From Escherichia coli (lineage in GTDB: Bacteria > Pseudomonadota > Gammaproteobacteria > Enterobacterales > Enterobacteriaceae), in the NCBI RefSeq assembly GCF_003334385.1, contig NZ_QOWN01000037.1: 42,441 nt of DNA; one strand, given 5' to 3'. This document shows, piece by piece, positions 1 through 18,430 of the stretch (positions are counted from its first letter, which is position 1; each line of letters starts with the position of its first letter). Position numbers and translations under genes: made by a program. A model generated the notes under the pieces. That model was given only the letters and a program-made list of their open reading frames with translations, had not been told where the DNA came from and ran no database searches.

Positions 1-72
1 AACGCGAGGCATCGTCTTAACGAGGCACCGAGGCGTCGCATTCTTCAGATGGTTCAACCCTTAAGTTAGCGC

Positions 73-264
73 TTATGCATCTCTTCCCCTCTTGCCCTGT
101 TTGACCATCAGGACGCCGTTAACTATTGCGTGACGCTCGCCTTTGCTGTCTCTGTTGTACTTGAGCACTGTTCCTCTTGCGCAGGAAAGCATCCTCGCCA
201 CTTCGGTCTGATTGCCTCGTGTCTGGATAAGAAGCTCTGGTATCGTTTGAATCGTGGCGTTCAT
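73..264 (-). CDS. ninH: NinH protein
   Basis: 63-aa translation (IPELLIQTRGNQTEVARMLSCARGTVLKYNRDSKGERHAIVNGVLMV) closely resembles lambda NinH as I recall it; last nin gene before the Q side. Confidence 0.7.
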   Translation of the reverse strand: MNATIQTIPELLIQTRGNQTEVARMLSCARGTVLKYNRDSKGERHAIVNGVLMVKQGKRGRDA

Positions 265-623
265 ACGTTCTCCAGTTCGGTGATTTTTATTCCAAGCCTT
301 CCGCCTGGTACTTTCACACCACGAATTACGCGAATGTCATCGAATTGCTCGTCGTCTTCCGCAAATCCGGCGTGGATAAGGGAGTCGAGTAAACCCTTCA
401 GGATGTTATCGAGGTCGCGGCGGCGGGAGTCTGGAACGTCTGCGATGACTTTGATGCGGAGTCTTGATTTGGTGAAAATGTCTAACTTGAGTTGGCGGAT
501 GATTTGCTGAACGTCTTTTCGGTATTTCTGGCCTTTATCGCTGATGTAGTATTGGCTTCCCCGTCTTCGCCAGTAGGTGTTCACCGACGGCGGGTAAGGA
601 AGCACAAACTGATATTCGTTCAT
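261..623 (-). CDS. rusA: RusA-family Holliday junction resolvase
   Basis: 120 aa with the RusA-like core (RRRDLDNILKGLLDSLIHAGF...DDEQFDDIRVIRG); start overlaps the upstream stop. Confidence 0.8.
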   Translation of the reverse strand: MNEYQFVLPYPPSVNTYWRRRGSQYYISDKGQKYRKDVQQIIRQLKLDIFTKSRLRIKVIADVPDSRRRDLDNILKGLLDSLIHAGFAEDDEQFDDIRVIRGVKVPGGRLGIKITELENV

Positions 624-910
624 GGCTTAATCTTCCCCTCCTTCAGCAGGATCGCCTGCGTCCTGATCACGCCTTCGAGGTGATAAAGTCTGGCGTCTTT
701 GTTGTCGAGATTATGGGTGCGTCGGTCGATTTCATCGTGACACGCGCTACAAGCCCATGCGCCGATCAGGTCGTCAGGCTTCATTCCCGTTCCGCAAATT
801 CCAGCCATCCGGTAATGTGCCAGAACTGTAGTTTCAGGATTACCATTGCATATTCCGTAAATACGTACCTGGCATTCTCTGCCGCGTGCTTCTTTGCGTA
901 GGTTAGCCAT
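620..910 (-). CDS. Cys-rich nin-region protein (DUF1364-like)
   Basis: 96-aa ORF with several Cys pairs (CQVRIYGIC...GICGTG...CSAC), translationally coupled to its neighbours; family assignment is from memory only. Confidence 0.5.
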   Translation of the reverse strand: MANLRKEARGRECQVRIYGICNGNPETTVLAHYRMAGICGTGMKPDDLIGAWACSACHDEIDRRTHNLDNKDARLYHLEGVIRTQAILLKEGKIKP

Positions 911-1179
911 TATGGTTCACTCCAGTAATTCTCAATTGCAGCAGCCATTCTCTGCATCCACTCAGCCAGCTTTAACGCGGCTTCTCTTTCAGAACCACAT
1001 TTAGGGAAATCCTTCATTTCCATGCTGGCCTTATATGTTCTGAATGCCAGGTCTCCGGTAATAACCAACTCCTGATCAAGCACCGAGCGTTTATTCCGGT
1101 GTTGAACGTAATAGACAGATTCAGTCCGCATTTCTTCTCTGTCTTTTTTGAAGGAAATAAGCTCAGAGAAATCACTCAT
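910..1179 (-). CDS. Hypothetical nin-region protein
   Basis: 89-aa ORF whose ATG overlaps the ninF stop (ATGAGTGA); no recognisable motif. Confidence 0.5.
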   Translation of the reverse strand: MSDFSELISFKKDREEMRTESVYYVQHRNKRSVLDQELVITGDLAFRTYKASMEMKDFPKCGSEREAALKLAEWMQRMAAAIENYWSEP

Positions 1180-1348
1180 CGTCTTCTTCCTCGTACATTG
1201 AGCTATTCGGATCGCTCATCAGTTCTGCGCAGCAGTGCTCACACACATGAACTTCCAGCACATGCAGCTTCTGACCGCAGTTAGCGCACGTTAAAGCCCG
1301 CTCGACGCTTTCTTTCTGGTATTGAAGGGATTGGGATGGGCTAAGCAT
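1172..1348 (-). CDS. ninF: NinF protein
   Basis: 58-aa ORF absent from the 60-aa-minimum track, translated by hand: MLSPSQSLQYQKESVERALTCANCGQKLHVLEVHVCEHCCAELMSDPNSSMYEEEDDE, matching lambda NinF as recalled. Confidence 0.75.
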   Translation of the reverse strand: MLSPSQSLQYQKESVERALTCANCGQKLHVLEVHVCEHCCAELMSDPNSSMYEEEDDE

Positions 1349-1700
1349 TATTGGCGTCCTGCATCATGAGAAAGACAATCATGGCAGCACGGAGTGGGTT
1401 TTCATCTTGAGTCATATGATATGGGGTACTATCACTGCCAACTTTTCTATGCGCTGCCTTCCATAATCCATTTTCTGGCGCTGGAATAATGCCAATTCTG
1501 TTCTCTACGATAATCGGCTCTGCGTCTGATGGGCTTTTACAGTAATCAACCGTTTTTATTGCATAACCAGTTTCGTCATCCCACTCAACACCAACGATTG
1601 ATGTTCCCAACTTTGCGATTTCGCAATCTTCGGGAGCAAATCCACAGCAAATTGCCACTCGCTTGTTAATTTCAAAATCACTTAATTGTGAATAATCCAT
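1341..1700 (-). CDS. Hypothetical protein at the ninE position
   Basis: Track ORF 1341..1742; the ATG at 1700 has GAGG 8 nt upstream, giving ~119 aa (alternative starts at 1706 or 1742). Not lambda NinE. Confidence 0.5.
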   Translation of the reverse strand: MDYSQLSDFEINKRVAICCGFAPEDCEIAKLGTSIVGVEWDDETGYAIKTVDYCKSPSDAEPIIVENRIGIIPAPENGLWKAAHRKVGSDSTPYHMTQDENPLRAAMIVFLMMQDANNA

Positions 1701-1845
1701 TGTCATTTCCTCGCACGATGTCTTAGCCACCGGATATCCCACAGGTGAGCCGTATAATTGAAGGTTTTTACGTCAGATTCTTTTGGGATTGGCTTGCGTT
1801 TATTTCTGGAGCGTTTCGTTGGAAGGTATTTGCAGTTTTCACAGA

Positions 1846-2019
1846 TTATGTCGGTGATACTTCGTCGCTGTCTCGCCACACGTCCTCCTTTTCCTGCGGT
1901 AGTGGTAACACCCCTGTTGGTGTTCTTTCACACCGGAGACACCATCGATTCCAGTAAGGTTGATTTGGTCGGAAGCGGTTATCTTCTTTGCATTCACCGC
2001 ACCGATAACATCGCATCAT
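1846..2019 (-). CDS. ninD: NinD protein
   Basis: [57 protein letters not shown]; the ATG overlaps the ninB stop (ATGATG). The track ORF extends further upstream, but coupling favours the 2019 start. Confidence 0.75.
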
Positions 2020-2456
2020 GCTGCCCGATCTCCCCATCGCGCTTTCCATTCGAGAGCCAGTCGCGCTTCGTCTGACCACTTAACGCCACGCTCTGTACCG
2101 AATGCCTGTATAAGCTCTAATAGCTCCGCAAATTCGCTTACACGCATCCTGCTGGTTGACTGGCCTATTACCACAAAGCCATTCCCGGCAAGGTTAGGAA
2201 CAACGTCCTGCTGCTTTAATGCTGCTGTAAAAACGCACTTCCAGCTTTCTGCATCCAGCCAGCGACCATGCCATTCAACCTGACGCGAAACGTCACCAAG
2301 GCAAGCCCAAAGCTTCCGATTTTGGTCTAAGCTGCGGTTGCGCTCCTGAATGGTTACTACGATTGGTTTGGTTGGGTCTGGAAGGATTTGCTGTACTGCG
2401 TGAATAGCGTTTTGCTGATGTGCCGGAGATCGAATTTCAAAGGTTAGTTTTTTCAT
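2016..2456 (-). CDS. ninB: NinB recombination protein
   Basis: Translation from [56 protein letters not shown] matches lambda NinB as recalled; track ORF 2016..2474 has a slightly upstream alternative start. Confidence 0.85.
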
Positions 2457-2484
2457 GACTTCCCTCTCCCCCAAATAAAAAGGC

Positions 2485-2512
2485 CTGCGATTACCAGCAG
2501 GCCTGTTATTAG
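2485..2512 (-). terminator. Rho-independent terminator (tR2-like) between the replication genes and ninB
   Basis: Minus strand reads AGGCCTGC-tggtaatc-GCAGGCCT followed by TTTTTATTT; same position as lambda tR2. Confidence 0.6.
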
Positions 2513-2533
2513 CTCAGTAATGTAGATGGTCAT

Positions 2534-4414
2534 TTAATACTCCGTCACGTTTTCCTGTCGCCACGCCTCGTCATATTCCGATTTCGGCATATTGGCGATG
2601 TAGCTATAAGGCGATCCTGATTCAAGTTGCAGGAACTGGTGCGATTGCTCGTCAAGGAACAACGGGACACCACCTTCCCAACCTTCGCCGTTACGTTGTT
2701 TTTCAAGCATCAAAACAGATGCCGGAGATGCCAGTAGCTGTTCGTCCTTCTCTGACATCTTTTCACCACTCTGAACTCTCTGTAACGCTCTCTCGCGAGC
2801 CTTGTTACGCCAGATGATGAAAAGGTTGTCTGTCAGGTCTGTTATCGCTCCAGAGCCTTTTACGTCCATTTTCCCGGTTGGTTTTTCTTCGCTGTCTCCT
2901 TTTCGCGAGTGAGTAACGAGAATGACGTGGGAGTTTGTTTTGTTTTTGAAGTCGCAAATCAAGTCAACAAACGCCTTCTGCCCGTTATAGTCATCGTCGC
3001 CTATGCCACATTTCATCAGGCTGTCGATGATGAATAACTGGATCCCGTATCGGCGGCGAGCGTAGTCGAATATTTCGATCAGCCTGTCGGCTTTCGCCGT
3101 TCCGGTCAGGCCAAACACCCAAAGTCTTTCGTCATAAAATTTAAATGCAGAGTCAATTTCCAGCACTGGCGGCATCTTGCAGCACGTCGCCTGACGGGTA
3201 AGGCGCTTAAGGAGAATACCAGGCTTCAGCTCAAGTGACGCGATGCACGTCTTCACACCCTGACGCATTGCCTCAAGTGCCATATGCCCGACAACCTCCG
3301 TTTTTCCGTGACCGTTCACACCATTGACCAGCGTCAACTCGGCCTCACGGAACTGGAATTTATCTGCCAGAGATTCCCACGGTGGATTAAACAGATACTG
3401 CTGCTTGCCGTAGAAAGCGTTGATAGTGTCCTGGTAAAACTCTCGCGCGCTGTAGAGTTCTTCAGGATCGAAGTAGGATGCCGTGCCGATGTACTGCCAG
3501 ATTTCATCCTCGGTAACACCGTTCATCAGGCATTCGTTGATGTCTTTGTACGGCAGAGTAACAAGACGGCAACGATGTTCACCGAGTCGGCTTGCGATTT
3601 CCCTTGCGGCTTCACGACCAACATCATCAACGTCCATCGAGATGAATATTTCCTCAAACCTGTCGAGGTTGTGATACTCAAACTCAATCCACTGTTGCTT
3701 AGCGCCTTTCCCGCCACCAAACGGCACGGATAACGCCGAGATGCCGTATTGCGCATAGCTCATACAATCAATTTCGCCTTCGCAAAGTACAACCGCCCTC
3801 ACGCCAGCGTCCAGAGCCTGCCATCCGAACAGACAAGGTTCACAATCACCTTCTGCCATAATGACTTTCTTCCCGTCCGGGCGCTCAGTGCTGATTCGCT
3901 TGACCTGCAACAACTCACCATCGCGTTTGTACGGAAGCACCAGTGCATCAAGTTCTCGTTCTCCATTCCACACCTTGCCGCTGACAACCTCGTAGCGCTT
4001 TACGACTTCTGGCGATATGCCACGCGATTGCAGGTACTCAAGATGGGATTCTGTTCTGGTAACGTAGCGGGCGATTTTCTTGCGGTCAGGTCTGGAGAAT
4101 TTCTTCTCACGTTTGGCATCGAAATGGTGATCGTCATCCTTGATTCCGAGAAAGGCTTTCGCTTCCTGCATAGCCTGATGCAGGTTAATTCCTCGACATG
4201 CCATCCACAAATCAAGCATGTCACCGCCGTCCCCCTCAGCGAAATCAGCCCATTTTTTCTTGCCGCTAAGGTTGACCTTAAGGCTGTTTCCCTTGTCACC
4301 GTTGACGTTACCGGCAACCCACTCATGCCCCTCTTTCTTGCCGTTTGGCAACAGGTGCGGAGCCACCCTGTCAACCTGCGCCCAAAGCAGGTCGCTAAGT
4401 TCACTTGGCCTCAT
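2534..4414 (-). CDS. Replicative primase-helicase (N-terminal TOPRIM primase fused to C-terminal DnaB/SF4-like P-loop helicase)
   Basis: 626 aa; TOPRIM-like LCEGEIDCMS followed by DVDDVG; Walker A GVNGHGKTE and Walker B-like LFIIDSLMK in the C-terminal half; GAGGG RBS; sits where lambda P would be. Confidence 0.7.
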   Translation of the reverse strand: MRPSELSDLLWAQVDRVAPHLLPNGKKEGHEWVAGNVNGDKGNSLKVNLSGKKKWADFAEGDGGDMLDLWMACRGINLHQAMQEAKAFLGIKDDDHHFDAKREKKFSRPDRKKIARYVTRTESHLEYLQSRGISPEVVKRYEVVSGKVWNGERELDALVLPYKRDGELLQVKRISTERPDGKKVIMAEGDCEPCLFGWQALDAGVRAVVLCEGEIDCMSYAQYGISALSVPFGGGKGAKQQWIEFEYHNLDRFEEIFISMDVDDVGREAAREIASRLGEHRCRLVTLPYKDINECLMNGVTEDEIWQYIGTASYFDPEELYSAREFYQDTINAFYGKQQYLFNPPWESLADKFQFREAELTLVNGVNGHGKTEVVGHMALEAMRQGVKTCIASLELKPGILLKRLTRQATCCKMPPVLEIDSAFKFYDERLWVFGLTGTAKADRLIEIFDYARRRYGIQLFIIDSLMKCGIGDDDYNGQKAFVDLICDFKNKTNSHVILVTHSRKGDSEEKPTGKMDVKGSGAITDLTDNLFIIWRNKARERALQRVQSGEKMSEKDEQLLASPASVLMLEKQRNGEGWEGGVPLFLDEQSHQFLQLESGSPYSYIANMPKSEYDEAWRQENVTEY

Positions 4415-4518
4415 GATTCCCTCAGATTGAGATTTTTAAACCAGAAATCGACAAACGAAATACTTAACCAGCCGTGGTTATAACCAGCGACCAGTAACGA
4501 TTTGATTTTTGATTTCAT
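4411..4518 (-). CDS. Small coupled ORF (35 aa) between O and the primase-helicase
   Basis: MKSKIKSLLVAGYNHGWLSISFVDFWFKNLNLRES; AGGTG RBS inside the O 3' end; its stop overlaps the primase-helicase ATG (ATGA). Below the track size cut-off. Confidence 0.35.
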   Translation of the reverse strand: MKSKIKSLLVAGYNHGWLSISFVDFWFKNLNLRES

Positions 4519-4521
4519 GGT

Positions 4522-5382
4522 TCACCTGTCGAAAAACACGTAGCCTGTTTTCGATACGGTGATTGCGGATGATGGTTTGGATTGTGGTTGAATGGTTTCT
4601 GGCTTCTCGTCGTTCCAGCGTTGACCGTTCAGGTAGCTCGATGGTAACAACCTGTCGAATCCGAACTGCTTACCATTCCTGCATGCGATGTCTTCTGCCA
4701 GCATCGTGGCAAACTCGCTTGCCGTACCCCTGGTAGTTTTACGCCATTCCCTGAACTGTGTTCTGAATGCCGAAGCTGCGTTTTTCTTCCCGGCCTTCCG
4801 CATGCCTGCACACCAGAATATTTCCTCGAATGCCTTGTCGGTTTCTTCGTGACGGTCAGGTGATTTTTCACACTCCGTCCGAACACTTTCGGACATAGTG
4901 TTTTTATTATTTCTTTTTTCTTTTGTAATAGTTTCTTTTGTGTGTCCCTGTTTTGGTGACAGCGCTGTCACCGTTTTGGTGACACTTTTTGTCACCAATG
5001 CAGTGACATTATCACCAGAGTAGTGACACCCTTCGATTTGCCATTCCTCGATGTTCTTGTTAGGCCCGATTTGCTGGCCTTCGCGAAGGATAACCTTCAT
5101 CGCGATAAGCTCATTCTTGGCCTTGTTTACCTTCTGTCTTGGCAGCCTGGTAATTTGAGCTAACTGACTATCAGAGATGCGATCCATCTTTTTACCGTAG
5201 CCGTATGTTTTACGGCATATGGCGTGGGCAACCTTGCTCTGATTTTTCGTTAAATCTGCGCCGATAAGCTCTTCATACAGGGCATTTGCAAGACGGGTAT
5301 AACCATCTTCAACTTCTGCCACACGACGCTCCACAGGCCGTTGTGAAGGCCTTAAATGTGTTACGGTTGCAAGATTACTCAT
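4522..5382 (-). CDS. O: Replication initiator O (lambda-O-like N-terminal domain, divergent C-terminal domain)
   Basis: N-terminal region ([56 protein letters not shown]...GPNKNIEEW) parallels lambda O; iterons lie inside the gene. Confidence 0.8.
4895..5031. repeat. Phage replication origin inside O: four iterons plus adjacent AT-rich region
   Basis: GGTGACAGCGCTGTCACC (4955-4972), GGTGACACTTTTTGTCACC (4978-4996), GTGACATTATCAC (~5003-5015) and GTGACACC (~5023-5030) at ~23-bp spacing, each with internal dyad; AT-rich stretch 4895-4940. Same organisation as lambda ori. Confidence 0.7.
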
Positions 5383-5521
5383 GACCTTTCTCCTTCTGCA
5401 TCAGCTTCACTTTTTCCAACTCAGCCCGGAATCGACCAGGCTGCTTGAAGCTGGACAGGAAGCGATCACGTAGTATGTGTTTGTGAATTTTGTCCTGGTA
5501 AGGACTGAGTTGTTTTGTCAT
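5375..5521 (-). CDS. Small basic protein (48 aa) between cII and O
   Basis: [48 protein letters not shown]; GGAG RBS 5 nt upstream; its 3' end overlaps the O start by 8 nt. Confidence 0.4.
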
Positions 5522-5555
5522 AATTACTCCTGTGGATTGATCCAGTCTTTCTACA

Positions 5556-5834
5556 TCAGGCCTCGAAGAATTCGCCGTTCTTCGGGGCTTTTTCTTTTGT
5601 CAGCATTCTGGCTACTTTCTTAGCCAGTTCCGCCAACTCCTCGTCTTCAACACCCCATTCAAGAACAGCCAGAAGCATTCCCATTTTTGGGATGAAGCTG
5701 TCTTTCCATCGCGAAATTTGCGATTCATTAATCCCTAACGCGTCGGCAACCTTTCGCTGACCACGTACAGCAATTCGATTCAGGATGTTGCTTGTAATTG
5801 CATTCGCTTTCTTGCGAGTACTTGTAAGTTGCAT
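5556..5834 (-). CDS. cII: CII transcriptional activator
   Basis: 92 aa with the lambda-CII-like core ([42 protein letters not shown]); located after cro and nutR. Confidence 0.85.
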
Positions 5835-5892
5835 ATGTAAGTATTTCCTTAACTAATAAGAAGTTATGCGCATCAACTTATGCGCGTTGTAT

Positions 5893-5938
5893 TCCCGCAT
5901 TTCGGCGGGAATGAGGACCATGACTGTTAAAGAGCGGT
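5893..5938 (-). promoter_or_regulatory. nutR (boxA plus boxB hairpin)
   Basis: Minus strand carries CGCTCTTTAACA (boxA) then a TCCCGC-CGAAAT-GCGGGA hairpin (boxB); the same elements recur at nutL. Confidence 0.7.
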
Positions 5939-5942
5939 GTTA

Positions 5943-6143
5943 CTATTTGTTTTTCTTGTTGCTTGGGAAAGGACGAACTTCCTCTCCAATCACACTGCCA
6001 TCAGGCTTTACCGTAACCATAATGTTACGGCCTGCCAGAATGGCCTTGCTGATAGCGCACTGGATTACACCAAAGTCACTGGCTGCTTTAGCCTGTCCAT
6101 GGATTTTGGCGTAATCGGCAAGTGTCATTCGAATCATATGCAC
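5943..6143 (-). CDS. cro: Cro repressor
   Basis: 66 aa ([58 protein letters not shown]) close to lambda Cro; the true start may be the second ATG at 6137. Confidence 0.85.
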
Positions 6144-6165
6144 TCTCCGTTATTAACCATGAACA

Positions 6166-6233
6166 AAGAATACTACAGGTATTCAAAGCAATCAATACTC
6201 AGGGTATTTTTAGTTTAAGTACCTTAGCTATTA
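6166..6233. promoter_or_regulatory. oR/pR/pRM region: repressor operators with dyad AATAC-N5-GTATT
   Basis: AATACTACAGGTATT (6169-6183), AATACTCAGGGTATT (6194-6208), weaker AGTACCTTAGCTATT (6218-6232), centres ~25 bp apart; minus-strand pR candidate -35 TTGATT and -10 TATTCT overlap the first two sites. Confidence 0.6.
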
Positions 6234-6243
6234 GAATTAAGCT

Positions 6244-6960
6244 ATGGAAAATAAAAAATCACTGACGACAGAACAGCTCGAAGACGCTAAGCGGCTTAAG
6301 GCTTTGTATGAGTCAAAAAAGAAAGAATTGGGAATAACCCAATACTCAATCGCTGATGAACTGGGTATCACCCAAGGAGCGGTAGGGCATTATCTTAATG
6401 GCAGAAACGCGCTAAACGTTGAGGTCGCATCTGGTTTTGCACGATTGTTGCAAGTCTCAATTGCTGATTTTAGCCAGTCAATTGCTGCCAAGGTTGCAGA
6501 ACAGGCAGAAAGCCTTAAGAGCGATGCCAACGTAAGGTATGCAGGGGAATACAGAGCAGGAAAGAGGTATCCGGTGTTAAGCAGTATCCAGGCTGGCTCG
6601 TGGTGTGAAGCATGCGAACCATACACCATTAAAGACATAGATGTTTGGCTTGAGTCTGACGCGCATATTCAAGGTAATGCGTTCTGGCTTAAAGTGGAAG
6701 GTGATTCAATGACGGCACCGGTTGGGTTAAGCATTCCAGAGGGAACATTCGTTCTTTTCGATACCGGAAGGGAGGCGATCAACGGCAGCTTGGTCATAGC
6801 AAAACTTTCTGACTCTAACGAAGCAACATTCAAGAAGCTGATAATCGACGGCGGAAATAAATACCTCAAGGGACTTAACCCTGCATGGCCTCTCGTGCCA
6901 ATCAATGGAAACTGCAAGATTATAGGCGTTGCAATTGAGACAAAACTAAGGCTGGTTTGA
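6244..6960 (+). CDS. cI: CI prophage repressor (HTH plus S24 LexA-like autopeptidase domain)
   Basis: 238 aa; parallels lambda CI in the N-terminal region (LTTEQLEDAKRLKALYESKKKELGITQ) and the C-terminal domain (FWLKVEGDSMTAP...FKKLI); the DNA-binding helix differs. Confidence 0.85.
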   Translation: MENKKSLTTEQLEDAKRLKALYESKKKELGITQYSIADELGITQGAVGHYLNGRNALNVEVASGFARLLQVSIADFSQSIAAKVAEQAESLKSDANVRYAGEYRAGKRYPVLSSIQAGSWCEACEPYTIKDIDVWLESDAHIQGNAFWLKVEGDSMTAPVGLSIPEGTFVLFDTGREAINGSLVIAKLSDSNEATFKKLIIDGGNKYLKGLNPAWPLVPINGNCKIIGVAIETKLRLV

Positions 6961-6979
6961 TCACGCAAGGGGGACGCTT

Positions 6980-7348
6980 ATGGTTGGAACCGCTATAGCA
7001 AGCTTTTTTGGGATGTTGGCAATCTCAACAATTTACGGCTTAGCGCATGCTTTTATTGCGAAATCTCTATCAGAAAAAATAAGCCAGGCTTGGGCGCATA
7101 GATCAGCTCGTTTCATGATTCTAGTGGTCATAGCAATACAAGGGATATCTGCATTTATCCTCTATGGATCAAGCTTATACCTGTTGTATCAAGGCGCGAC
7201 ATTTACGCCTTACACCAGTGATTACGGAACTCTATACGATGGTAGTGAAGACATCTCTATGGCTTGGATCGTCTTTGGTTTATCTATGGCCGTGTCTGTT
7301 GTAGCAGACATCATTAAGGTAATTCTCGTCTTAACCTTCGCTGACTAA
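6980..7348 (+). CDS. Small 3-TM membrane protein co-transcribed with cI (rexAB position)
   Basis: 122 aa with three hydrophobic segments (residues ~4-27, 44-66, 93-120); strong RBS AAGGGGG 7 nt upstream; 19 bp after the cI stop. Confidence 0.6.
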   Translation: MVGTAIASFFGMLAISTIYGLAHAFIAKSLSEKISQAWAHRSARFMILVVIAIQGISAFILYGSSLYLLYQGATFTPYTSDYGTLYDGSEDISMAWIVFGLSMAVSVVADIIKVILVLTFAD

Positions 7349-7489
7349 CCCATAATCCCGGCAGCAATAGCTATCGGGATCCACTTCACATATCCCGCAT
7401 AAAAAGCACTGAACAAGCAGATACCGAAAAAATAAATATCCTTTGTATTCATCTGTTTATCATTATTTCATCAAAAATAAATACCTTGG

Positions 7490-7531
7490 GTATTTACACA
7501 ATAAAATACCTGCAGTATTCTTTAGCCATCA
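7490..7531 (+). promoter_or_regulatory. oL operators and pL promoter
   Basis: AATACCTTGGGTATT (7490-7504) and AATACCTGCAGTATT (7515-7529) match the oR dyads; -35 TTTACA (7503-7508) and -10 TATTCT (7526-7531) with a 17-bp spacer overlap them. Confidence 0.6.
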
Positions 7532-7566
7532 GCAGGACGCTGGTAGCCAAACGGAACAGATTGGCA

Positions 7567-7608
7567 GGCTCTTTAACATTGATGGGATTGTCCCGCCGAA
7601 ATGCGGGA
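7567..7608 (+). promoter_or_regulatory. nutL (boxA plus boxB hairpin)
   Basis: GGCTCTTTAACA followed 12 nt later by TCCCGC-CGAAAT-GCGGGA, identical in hairpin to nutR. Confidence 0.65.
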
Positions 7609-7779
7609 ACCAAAGAGTAGTTGGCTTTGGGGTGTGGTGAAGGGTTCATGGACGGGAATATGTCGCACGTAAAGCGGCGAGGCCTGCGGGACTATTGCCG
7701 AATTGAAGTCGGACGAAGCGGGTCGAAATGGGTCTCCCACCTACCACACCACCAAAGCTAATCATCTGAGGAACAGAAA

Positions 7780-15745: not shown

Positions 15746-16793
15746 GCGCCGGGATTTACCCCCTAACCTTTATATAAGAAACAATGGATATTACTGCTAC
15801 AGGGACCCAAGGACGGGTAAAGAGTTCGGATTAGGCAGAGACAGGAGGATAGCAATCACTGAAGCTATACAGGCCAACATTGAGTTATTTTCAGGACACA
15901 AACACAAGCCTCTGACAGCAAGAATCAACAGTGATAATTCTGTTACGTTACATTCATGGCTTGATCGCTACGAAAAAATCCTCTCCAGCAGAGGAATCAA
16001 GCAGAAGACACTCATAAATTACATGAGCAAAATTAAAGCAATAAGGAGGGGTCTACCTGATGTTCCACTTGAAGACATCACCACAAAAGAAATTGCGGCA
16101 ATGCTCAATGGATACATAGACGAGGGCAAGGCGGCATCAGCCAAGTTAATCAGATCAACACTGAGCGATGCATTCCGAGAGGCAATAGCTGAAGGCCATA
16201 TAACAACAAACCCGGTCGCTGCCACTCGCGCAGCAAAATCAGAGGTAAGGAGATCAAGACTTACGGCTGACGAATACCTGAAAATTTATCAAGCAGCAGA
16301 ATCATCACCATGTTGGCTCAGACTTGCAATGGAACTGGCTGTTGTTACCGGGCAGCGAGTTGGGGATTTATGCGAAATGAAATGGTCTGATATCGTAGAT
16401 GGATATTTTTATGTCGAGCAAAGCAAAACAGGCGTAAAAATTGCCATCCCTACAACATTGCATGTTGATGCTCTCGGGATATCAATGAAGGAAACACTTG
16501 ATAAATGCAAAGAGATTCTTGGCGGAGAAACCATAATTGCATCTACTCGTCGTGAACCGCTTTCATCCGGCACAGTATCAAGGTATTTTATGCGCGCACG
16601 AAAAGCATCAGGTCTTTCCTTCGAAGGGGATCCGCCTACCTTTCACGAGTTGCGCAGTTTGTCTGCAAGACTCTATGAGAAGCAGATAAGCGATAAGTTT
16701 GCTCAACATCTTCTCGGGCATAAGTCGGACACCATGGCATCACAGTATCGTGATGACAGAGGCAGGGAGTGGGACAAAATTGAAATCAAATAA
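15723..16793 (+). CDS. int: Lambda-type tyrosine integrase
   Basis: 356 aa, MGRRRSHERRDLPPNLYIRNNGYYCYRDPRTGKEFGLGRDRRIAITEAIQANIELFSG... essentially lambda Int as recalled. Confidence 0.95.
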   Translation: MGRRRSHERRDLPPNLYIRNNGYYCYRDPRTGKEFGLGRDRRIAITEAIQANIELFSGHKHKPLTARINSDNSVTLHSWLDRYEKILSSRGIKQKTLINYMSKIKAIRRGLPDVPLEDITTKEIAAMLNGYIDEGKAASAKLIRSTLSDAFREAIAEGHITTNPVAATRAAKSEVRRSRLTADEYLKIYQAAESSPCWLRLAMELAVVTGQRVGDLCEMKWSDIVDGYFYVEQSKTGVKIAIPTTLHVDALGISMKETLDKCKEILGGETIIASTRREPLSSGTVSRYFMRARKASGLSFEGDPPTFHELRSLSARLYEKQISDKFAQHLLGHKSDTMASQYRDDRGREWDKIEIK

Positions 16794-16881
16794 TGATTTT
16801 ATTTTGACTGATAGTGACCTGTTCGTTGCAACAAATTGATAAGCAATGCTTTTTTATAATGCCAACTTAGTATAAAAAAGC
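16794..16881. other. attL: lambda P' arm plus 15-bp core, joined to the bacterial B arm
   Basis: Plus strand 16794-16866 is the reverse complement of the lambda attP P' arm (including AGGTCACTATCAGTCAAAAT arm sites); core TTAGTATAAAAAAGC at 16867-16881; followed by AGCAGG (complement of attB CCTGCT). Confidence 0.9.
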
Positions 16882-16927
16882 AGGCTTCAACGGATTCATT
16901 TTTCTATTTCATAGCCCGGAGCAACCT

Positions 16928-18211
16928 GTGAACACATTTTCAGTTTCCCGTCTGGCGCTGGCATTGGCTTTTGGCGTGACGCTGACCGCCTGTAGCTCAA
17001 CCCCGCCCGATCAACGTCCTTCTGATCAAACCGCGCCTGGTACCTCTTCTCGCCCGATTCTGTCGGCAAAAGAAGCGCAGAATTTCGATGCTCAACACTA
17101 TTTTGCATCCCTGACACCAGGTGCTGCAGCGTGGAATCCTTCCCCGATTACCCTGCCTGCGCAACCTGACTTTGTTGTCGGCCCGGCGGGCACTCAAGGT
17201 GTAACGCATACCACGATTCAGGCGGCGGTAGATGCGGCAATTATCAAGCGTACCAACAAGCGCCAGTATATTGCCGTGATGCCTGGTGAGTATCAGGGAA
17301 CGGTATATGTCCCTGCCGCTCCGGGTGGAATTACTCTGTACGGTACAGGTGAAAAACCGATTGATGTGAAGATTGGGCTTTCCCTTGATGGTGGCATGAG
17401 CCCTGCCGACTGGCGTCACGACGTCAACCCGCGCGGCAAATATATGCCAGGTAAACCAGCGTGGTATATGTACGATAGCTGCCAGAGCAAACGCAGCGAC
17501 AGTATCGGTGTTCTCTGCTCTGCGGTCTTCTGGTCACAAAACAATGGCCTGCAACTGCAAAATCTGACCATCGAAAACACGCTGGGCGATAGCGTAGATG
17601 CAGGTAACCATCCGGCGGTAGCACTGCGTACTGATGGTGACCAGGTACAGATTAACAACGTTAACATTCTCGGTCGTCAGAACACCTTCTTTGTCACCAA
17701 CAGCGGTGTGCAGAACCGTCTGGAAACGAATCGTCAGCCGCGTACGCTGGTGACCAACAGCTACATTGAAGGGGATGTGGATATCGTTTCTGGTCGCGGC
17801 GCAGTGGTGTTCGATAACACCGAATTCCGCGTGGTGAACTCACGTACTCAGCAAGAAGCGTATGTGTTTGCACCGGCTACGCTGTCCAACATTTACTACG
17901 GTTTCCTCGCCGTAAACAGCCGTTTCAATGCTTTCGGTGATGGTGTGGCGCAACTGGGCCGCTCGCTGGATGTTGATGCCAATACCAACGGTCAGGTGGT
18001 GATCCGTGATAGCGCCATCAACGAAGGTTTTAACACGGCTAAACCGTGGGCCGATGCGGTGATCTCTAATCGTCCGTTTGCGGGTAATACCGGCAGCGTA
18101 GATGATAACGACGAAATACAGCGCAATCTGAATGACACTAACTACAACCGCATGTGGGAATACAATAACCGCGGCGTGGGTAGTAAAGTGGTTGCAGAGG
18201 CGAAGAAGTAA
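16928..18211 (+). CDS. ybhC: Pectinesterase-like outer-membrane lipoprotein YbhC
   Basis: 427 aa, GTG start, lipobox LTAC; matches K-12 YbhC as recalled. Confidence 0.9.
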   Translation: MNTFSVSRLALALAFGVTLTACSSTPPDQRPSDQTAPGTSSRPILSAKEAQNFDAQHYFASLTPGAAAWNPSPITLPAQPDFVVGPAGTQGVTHTTIQAAVDAAIIKRTNKRQYIAVMPGEYQGTVYVPAAPGGITLYGTGEKPIDVKIGLSLDGGMSPADWRHDVNPRGKYMPGKPAWYMYDSCQSKRSDSIGVLCSAVFWSQNNGLQLQNLTIENTLGDSVDAGNHPAVALRTDGDQVQINNVNILGRQNTFFVTNSGVQNRLETNRQPRTLVTNSYIEGDVDIVSGRGAVVFDNTEFRVVNSRTQQEAYVFAPATLSNIYYGFLAVNSRFNAFGDGVAQLGRSLDVDANTNGQVVIRDSAINEGFNTAKPWADAVISNRPFAGNTGSVDDNDEIQRNLNDTNYNRMWEYNNRGVGSKVVAEAKK

Positions 18212-18227
18212 GAGCAATTAACTATTT

Positions 18228-18430
<203 letters not shown>

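Follow-up and report, generated by a model that had tools for sequence, protein, structure and literature searches.

Does a prophage that ends 46 bp from the start codon of ybhC change the expression of this gene? The question is raised by a stretch of 42,441 nucleotides from an Escherichia coli genome (RefSeq assembly GCF_003334385.1, contig NZ_QOWN01000037.1), hereafter called the window. In the initial annotation the segment 16794-16927 had been read as a prophage junction of the attL type, in which phage DNA takes the place of the native DNA upstream of ybhC and int is transcribed towards it; it had been proposed that expression of ybhC may differ between lysogens and cured strains. The structure of the junction, the route by which phage transcripts could reach ybhC, the published expression data and the conservation of the attachment site are described here in turn.

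Anatomy of the junction

As read from the window sequence and the list of open reading frames, the reading frame preceding the junction is int (15723-16793, + strand), closed by a TAA stop at 16791-16793. The 15-bp core TTAGTATAAAAAAGC, which is the reverse complement of lambda GCTTTTTTATACTAA, is found at 16867-16881. The GTG of ybhC is located at 16928, and the gap in between (16882-16927) is made of exactly 46 bp of host DNA; the distances given in the initial annotation hold to the base. Left of the core the sequence is that of a phage. The 122 bp compared at 16760-16881 have no mismatches to either lambda or HK97 attP, and the segment 15437-16881 is 99.0%, 98.5% and 97.9% identical to the int-xis-attP modules of HK97, 434 and lambda, respectively. 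The segment 16863-42441 aligns to K-12 MG1655 781,768-807,346 with no gaps and only 6 mismatches (99.977% identity). One of these, at 16866, distinguishes the C' site of the phage, with C, from the B' site of K-12, with G. From 16867 to 42441 the host B arm matches the unoccupied attB, being the same as K-12 apart from 5 SNPs. In a four-way alignment of the window, K-12 attB, lambda attP and HK97 attP, the core TTAGTATAAAAAAGC is common to all; the window tracks the phages left of it and the host right of it, and the switch of partner occurs exactly at the core. The strands were exchanged within this 15-bp core.

On sequence grounds the junction is a canonical lambda-type attL (B-O-P'), located in the attB site of the ybhB/ybhC intergenic region, and the likeness is one of homology, not of chance; the attP and attB identities and the switch at the core bear out the prophage junction originally proposed. 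The probability that the resemblance is coincidental, or that the junction is an artefact of assembly, is negligible: the two flanks are perfectly identical to attP and to K-12 attB, respectively, the switch being confined to the core, and the identical int-attL-ybhC junction is present in 1912 of the 5426 complete E. coli genomes. The intact 81-bp attB was found in 3491 of the same 5426. The ybhC/ybhB intergenic site has been called the phage lambda locus, and described as rich in islands (PMC9580842). The junction is thus a textbook structure, already known and very common.

The attL is composed of distinct parts. The P' arm (16790-16862, unstranded) is identical to that of lambda and HK97 attP. 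It includes three arm-type Int sites, which we take to be P'3 (16790-16799), P'2 (16801-16810) and P'1 (16811-16820), and a presumed IHF site, H', predicted at 16829-16841 from the consensus in the lambda literature. The 21-bp core region C'-O-B (16863-16883, unstranded), delimited by the four-way alignment, presumably consists of C' (CAACTTA, 16863-16869), the 7-bp overlap (GTATAAA, 16870-16876) and B (AAAGCAG, 16877-16883). The retained host B arm (16882-16927, + strand), identical to K-12, is the 46-bp leader of ybhC, and carries a Shine-Dalgarno motif, GGAG, at 16918-16921, which is invariant in 15 species. ybhC (16928-18211, + strand) encodes, from its GTG start, an outer-membrane lipoprotein of 427 aa that belongs to the pectinesterase-like family and shows 100% identity to YbhC of K-12; the gene is annotated ybhC in all the matching genomes.

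A repeat search detected a perfect 12-bp inverted repeat, TGCTTTTTTATA / TATAAAAAAGCA, at 16847-16858 and 16871-16882 (unstranded). In read-through RNA the repeat would give an A/U-rich hairpin, present in both the MFE and the centroid folds. The repeat is only 11 bp long in attP, the twelfth pair being supplied by the host B arm. A role as intrinsic terminator was considered and rejected, as the stem is A/U-rich and there is no U tract in the int to ybhC direction.

The host side of the window extends from ybhC through ybhJIHD, pgl, ybhA, modCBA, acrZ, modEF, galETKM, gpmA and aroG to ybgS, zitB, pnuC and nadA, the gal genes lying at about 32.3-36.5 kb. The SNPs distinguishing these 25.6 kb from K-12 MG1655 are located at 17620 (a synonymous change in ybhC), 19528, 23772, 31930 and 40853. 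The host is K-12-like, and its prophage is lambdoid without being lambda. Two tandem units of about 92 bp, of the REP/BIME type, are found 3' of ybhC at 18227-18421, and the layout is the same in K-12. One of these matches the Rfam family naRNA4 (18280-18350, - strand) with 60.7 bits, barely over the gathering score.

Prophage content and the probable route of transcription into ybhC

The window opens inside the replication/nin region of the prophage, and attR lies beyond it. A gene encoding a CI-like repressor of the LexA family (6244-6960, + strand; PHROG phrog_4, transcriptional repressor, E 3e-49) identifies the immunity region; the early-left operon runs from here towards int and ybhC. 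The first gene of this pL-type operon encodes an N-like antitermination protein (7868-8212, + strand; phrog_271, anti-termination protein N-like, E 2e-34). It is followed on the same strand by genes for Erf, SSB and Abc2, several ea-type ORFs, xis and int, all co-oriented with ybhC. The only exception is a SieB-like superinfection-exclusion gene (8234-8773, - strand; phrog_1301), which sits right after the N-like gene and is opposite to the surrounding operon. A match to the Rfam family Lambda_thermo, the translational thermoregulator of cIII, has been identified at 10216-10274 (+ strand; 88.5 bits, E 2e-20), and a cIII-like gene should start there in the early-left operon. Genes for CII-like, O-like and primase/helicase proteins are recognized by PHROG profiles on the opposite strand. 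The region is a lambdoid early region, with its leftward pL-type operon aimed at ybhC.

The excisionase gene xis (15527-15745, + strand; 72 aa) was assigned through phrog_629 (E 6e-23) and the lambda and HK97 annotations under the match. The int product is a lambda-type tyrosine integrase of 356 aa, recognized by PHROG integrase families, in which 350 of the 356 residues (98%) are identical to lambda Int; the catalytic residues R212, K235, H308, R311, H333 and Y342 are all kept.

The attL of lambda in K-12 is the closest known counterpart of the junction. No differences are found in the core, in the 122 bp of P' arm compared or in the B arm that forms the leader of ybhC, and xis and the orientation are shared too, with int pointing towards ybhC and gal. 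Similarity to lambda is restricted to the att/int/xis module; the immunity and early genes are different. Elsewhere the prophage features Erf/SSB/Abc2-type genes, another CI-like repressor, a replication gene of the primase/helicase type and the SieB-like gene. The element is a mosaic, in which HK97-like int/xis/att and P22-like Erf/SSB/Abc2 recombination genes are joined to the primase/helicase-type gene, and it is most like vB_EcoP-720R6, mEp043 and Sf101. The int-xis-attP modules of HK97 and 434 are the closest DNA match to 15437-16881, including the hairpin 5' of xis described below; the early genes of HK97 match in part, covering 34% of 1-16881. No match to the whole early region (1-16881) was found among 50,697 phage records, the best being vB_EcoP-720R6 with 56% coverage, and the highest coverage of 1-17200 among the 5,426 complete E. 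coli genomes is 63%. Two sequences of about 39.9 kb deposited as E. coli plasmids, NZ_CP146561.1 and NZ_CP146567.1, match the early region, as far as the att core, with 97% identity, and look like circular excised lambdoid phage genomes.

Signals that could govern transcription towards ybhC have been searched on the + strand. A terminator scan revealed a hairpin followed by a T run (GCCGCATCAATGCGGC TTTTTCTTGC) at 15479-15504, just 5' of xis. A putative terminator is annotated at the same position in HK97, and the hairpin would stop transcripts that are not antiterminated. The partly overlapping repeat TTGC-N6-TTGC (15501-15514, + strand), noted by direct reading in a region 97.9-99% identical to lambda and HK97, is presumably the place of the -35 region of the CII-activated promoter pI. 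From 15495 to ybhC the scan found no terminator-like site on the + strand. The int-ybhC stretch is free of terminators because the tI/sib hairpin (GCGCAAGG...CTTGCGC followed by a T run) belongs to the other arm of attP, the P arm; 150 bp separate it from the core in lambda and in HK97, the latter with sib annotated. In a lysogen it is therefore found at attR, and transcripts across int would thus run on into ybhC. As in lambda, integration parts tI/sib from int; this separation is the classical basis of int retroregulation.

Integration modifies the region upstream of ybhC to a large extent. The ybhB-ybhC intergenic region of K-12 measures 151 bp. Its upstream 90 bp (105 bp counting the core) are transferred to the opposite end of the prophage, and the 15-bp core is present at both junctions. 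As originally stated, phage sequence replaces the native upstream DNA, and the P' arm now occupies everything 5' of the core. The claim that int is transcribed towards ybhC was likewise correct, and may be extended to the whole N-antiterminated pL operon. After integration the P' arm, with its predicted arm-type Int sites and H' site for IHF, abuts the core, and the host keeps before ybhC only the core and the 46 bp that include the Shine-Dalgarno motif. In the repressed lysogen, with pL off and pI deprived of CII, little transcription would be expected to arrive at ybhC. Upon induction, N-antiterminated transcription from pL, together with local escape replication, may raise ybhC and its neighbours a few-fold. 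The arrangement recalls the escape synthesis known for the gal side of lambda, as a pL-type operon with an N-like antiterminator points likewise, via attL, to ybhC and gal.

ybhC expression in lysogens

Isogenic lambda lysogens and non-lysogens of K-12 have been compared by arrays in the course of UV induction (Osterhout 2007, Table S4; PMC2147009), and the attL of the lysogen is identical to that of the window, so that the comparison pertinent to the expression claim has in effect been made for lambda. At 0 min ybhC is unchanged, the log2(lysogen/non-lysogen) being -0.12 (p 0.80). Values of -0.65 (p 0.21), +1.26 (p 0.0097) and +1.63 (p 0.0006) are reported at 20, 40 and 60 min after UV, respectively (PMC2147009). 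In log phase 18 host genes are altered in the lambda lysogen, and ybhC is not among them (PMC2147009). The proposal that ybhC expression may differ in a lysogen is therefore upheld by the lambda arrays after induction only; in uninduced cells no difference is seen. These data refer to lambda itself, to one growth condition and to a 2007 platform, of limited sensitivity for a weakly expressed gene. Within this scope they argue weakly against a steady-state effect on ybhC, and suggest that in the repressed lysogen the level of ybhC mRNA would be about that of the non-lysogen.

The rise after induction is not specific to ybhC. At 60 min the neighbouring genes ybhB (+1.35), ybhJ (+1.77), ybhD (+2.40), pgl (+1.70), galE (+3.19) and galT (+3.51) are also increased, and ybhC, ybhD, pgl and galETK all rise in the lambda induction arrays (PMC2147009). 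All fall in a zone of enhancement of 300 kb around attB, attributed by the authors to escape replication combined with N-mediated antitermination (PMC2147009). In a replication-defective mutant ybhD and b0770-b0771, on the gal side, are still up, and ybhC is not listed there (PMC2147009). Read-through and local replication are combined in the published effect, and the increase of ybhC is classical regional escape synthesis, already known.

It could be argued that the prophage raises ybhC also in the repressed lysogen, because either constitutive int transcription or a promoter within the P' arm reads through attL. No terminator separates int from ybhC, a perfect TATAAT can be read directly at 16855-16860, and int RNA was reported in lambda lysogens by Chen 2005 (PMC1151598). 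Against this, int expression was not detected in lysogens by Osterhout 2007 (PMC2147009), and the unchanged ybhC value at 0 min is at odds with a constitutive input. The TATAAT is moreover accompanied by neither an acceptable -35 nor a TG extension, and is absent from both promoter scans. A contribution of this kind is regarded as very unlikely. The preferred reading, namely that the junction is the attL of a mosaic lambdoid prophage with an int-xis-att module of the lambda/HK97 type, inserted in a K-12-like E. coli, with ybhC near its normal level under repression and increased upon induction, is held with high confidence.

The conserved block around attB

A different possibility is that integration cuts the native promoter or operator of ybhC in two, and that steady-state ybhC is much lower in lysogens, the drop having been missed by the arrays. 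The hypothesis draws on an engineered insertion and on the conservation of the DNA around attB.

A 12.5-kb cassette, cat-lsr-aph, has been introduced "next to attB" of E. coli 83972 by recombineering (PMC12263705). According to the primer arms in the supplement of the same paper (PMC12263705), the cassette lies exactly between ...TTTTTACCT and TCCCGTTTCG... / TCCCGTTTCGCTCAAG..., with no deletion, that is 16 bp 5' of the core and 77 bp 5' of the GTG. In the resulting attB::lsr strain ybhC is the most down-regulated gene (8-11 fold), with log2 values of -3.44 in lag, -3.01 in exponential and -1.57 in transition phase (PMC12263705). The drop was tied by the authors to lsr, and a position effect was not considered (PMC12263705). 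Deletion of ybhC and insertion at attB each raised the sensitivity of 83972 to H2O2 (PMC12263705). The same upstream DNA is parted from ybhC in 83972 and in the window. The two cases differ because the engineered break precedes the phage crossover by 16 bp, and because plasmid/cassette DNA is found in place of the P' arm. The result suggests that ybhC is influenced by DNA 5' of -77, or by the continuity of that DNA with the core region, and both the ybhC drop and the H2O2 sensitivity may be position effects of the insertion and not effects of lsr. The lsr genes, the two resistance markers and the uncertain direction of transcription of the insert are all confounding factors.

Conservation was analyzed by scanning one genome per species with a 19-mer, TTAGTATAAAAAAGCAGGC, formed by the core and 4 nt of the B arm. 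The scan yielded 87 loci, about 80 of them in Enterobacteriaceae, and in every enterobacterial locus the 19-mer is found at a similar short distance 5' of ybhC. A nearly invariant block of about 38 nt, CTTCCCGTTTCGCTCAAC-TTAGTATAAAAAAGC-AGGCT, is thus located just 5' of ybhC in about 80 species of at least 13 genera, among which Escherichia, Citrobacter, Salmonella (arizonae, diarizonae), Enterobacter, Leclercia, Lelliottia, Silvania, Pseudenterobacter, Kosakonia, Phytobacter, Pseudescherichia, Cedecea and Buttiauxella. In K-12 the block and attB map at 2824-2861 (- strand) of locus L001, the relatives being loci L005-L091, and the remnant in the window spans 16867-16886. The 18 nt 5' of the 19-mer, which were not part of the query, reach 98% column identity over 71 distinct sequences of enterobacteria, and identity falls to 45-66% further upstream and to 50-65% downstream. 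Selection by the 19-mer biases the sample, but leaves unaffected the difference between the 18-nt flank and the DNA around it. In an alignment of 15 species, CTTCCCGTTTCGCTCAAC-TTAGTATAAAAAAGC-AGGC(T) is more invariant than the codons of the ybhC signal peptide, and the block remains beside ybhC also when a gene other than ybhB lies upstream. Integration splits this block. Four of the species representatives (L006, L028, L047 and L055) have phage-type arms and correspond to occupied sites.

Some additional features of the site deserve mention. The insertion point in 83972 corresponds to 2860/2861 of L001. In most genera attB features CAAC, a perfect core-type site for Int, where K-12 has CAAG. 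CAAC is also read in the phage C' site at 16866 (consensus CAACTTNNT), CAAG of the K-12 B' site being a slightly weaker variant.

The block has neither dyad symmetry nor coding signal. A small ORF was rejected, since conservation is equal at all codon positions and indels are found upstream. The attB intergenic region matches no Rfam family, the search having returned only chance matches with E >3. Spacings typical of sigma-E, sigma-32, sigma-54 and sigma-28, and CpxR-, PhoP- and ModE-like boxes, were looked for in the block by eye, and were discarded as none fits across genera. The simplest guess is that the block is the core promoter or operator of ybhC. The promoter could be formed by the block, written as CTTCCCGTTTCGCTCAA(C/G) on one side of the split and TTAGTATAAAAAAGCAGGCT on the other, together with a weak -35, TTTACC, just upstream. 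No sigma-70-like site was detected by a promoter scan, either in 16794-16927 or on the ybhC strand of the native K-12 intergenic region. With a crude PWM built on textbook consensus frequencies, the best candidate in attB consists of -35 TTTACC and -10 TAGTAT spaced by 18 bp. In attL this candidate loses its -35, and the score drops from 8.2 to 3.6, as expected if a native promoter were split, but it does not count as evidence because 40% of shuffled sequences score as well. Among other sources, the supplements of a SMRT-Cappable-seq study, searched for transcription start data, have no ybhC entry, and the paper on K-12 WG1/EMG2 includes no expression data. The BW25113-T7 knock-in was set aside as promoter evidence, as the ybhC coding sequence is disrupted there.

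A split promoter would account for the marked decrease of ybhC caused by a cassette 77 bp 5' of the GTG, for the sharp conservation of the 18-nt flank, and for the persistence of the block beside ybhC next to different upstream genes. The lambda arrays speak against it, as ybhC is unaffected at 0 min and is outside the set of lysogen-altered genes; nor is ybhC mentioned in the text of Chen 2005 (PMC1151598). The promoter candidate is no better than shuffled sequence, the 83972 data are open to the confounding factors listed above, and one third of E. coli genomes tolerate a split site. A strong reduction of ybhC in the steady state that escaped the arrays is hence deemed rather improbable. If the block is a promoter, the lambda result at 0 min implies that attL keeps, or replaces, enough of it in log phase in rich medium. 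A conditional variant, in which the block is the promoter of ybhC or an operator bound by some regulator, and integration, in about 36% of complete E. coli genomes, removes its left half and rewires ybhC under circumstances outside those of the 2007 arrays, such as oxidative stress, is plausible enough to be stated, and is rated as slightly more doubtful still.

Under the preferred reading, that of a lambda-type attL leaving ybhC about unchanged until induction, the junction is useful for annotation. It fixes the left end of the prophage, and identifies an integration module of the lambda/HK97 type in a K-12-like host. Its consequences for transcription, namely int uncoupled from sib/tI and, upon induction, read-through in the direction of gal, are textbook lambda biology. 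If the attB block regulates ybhC, one third of E. coli strains would carry an altered version of this regulation. ybhC has been used as a "stable" reference gene in qPCR (PMC3903629). If the regulatory role is true, ybhC would be a poor reference for comparing lysogens to non-lysogens, or strains hosting constructs integrated at attB.
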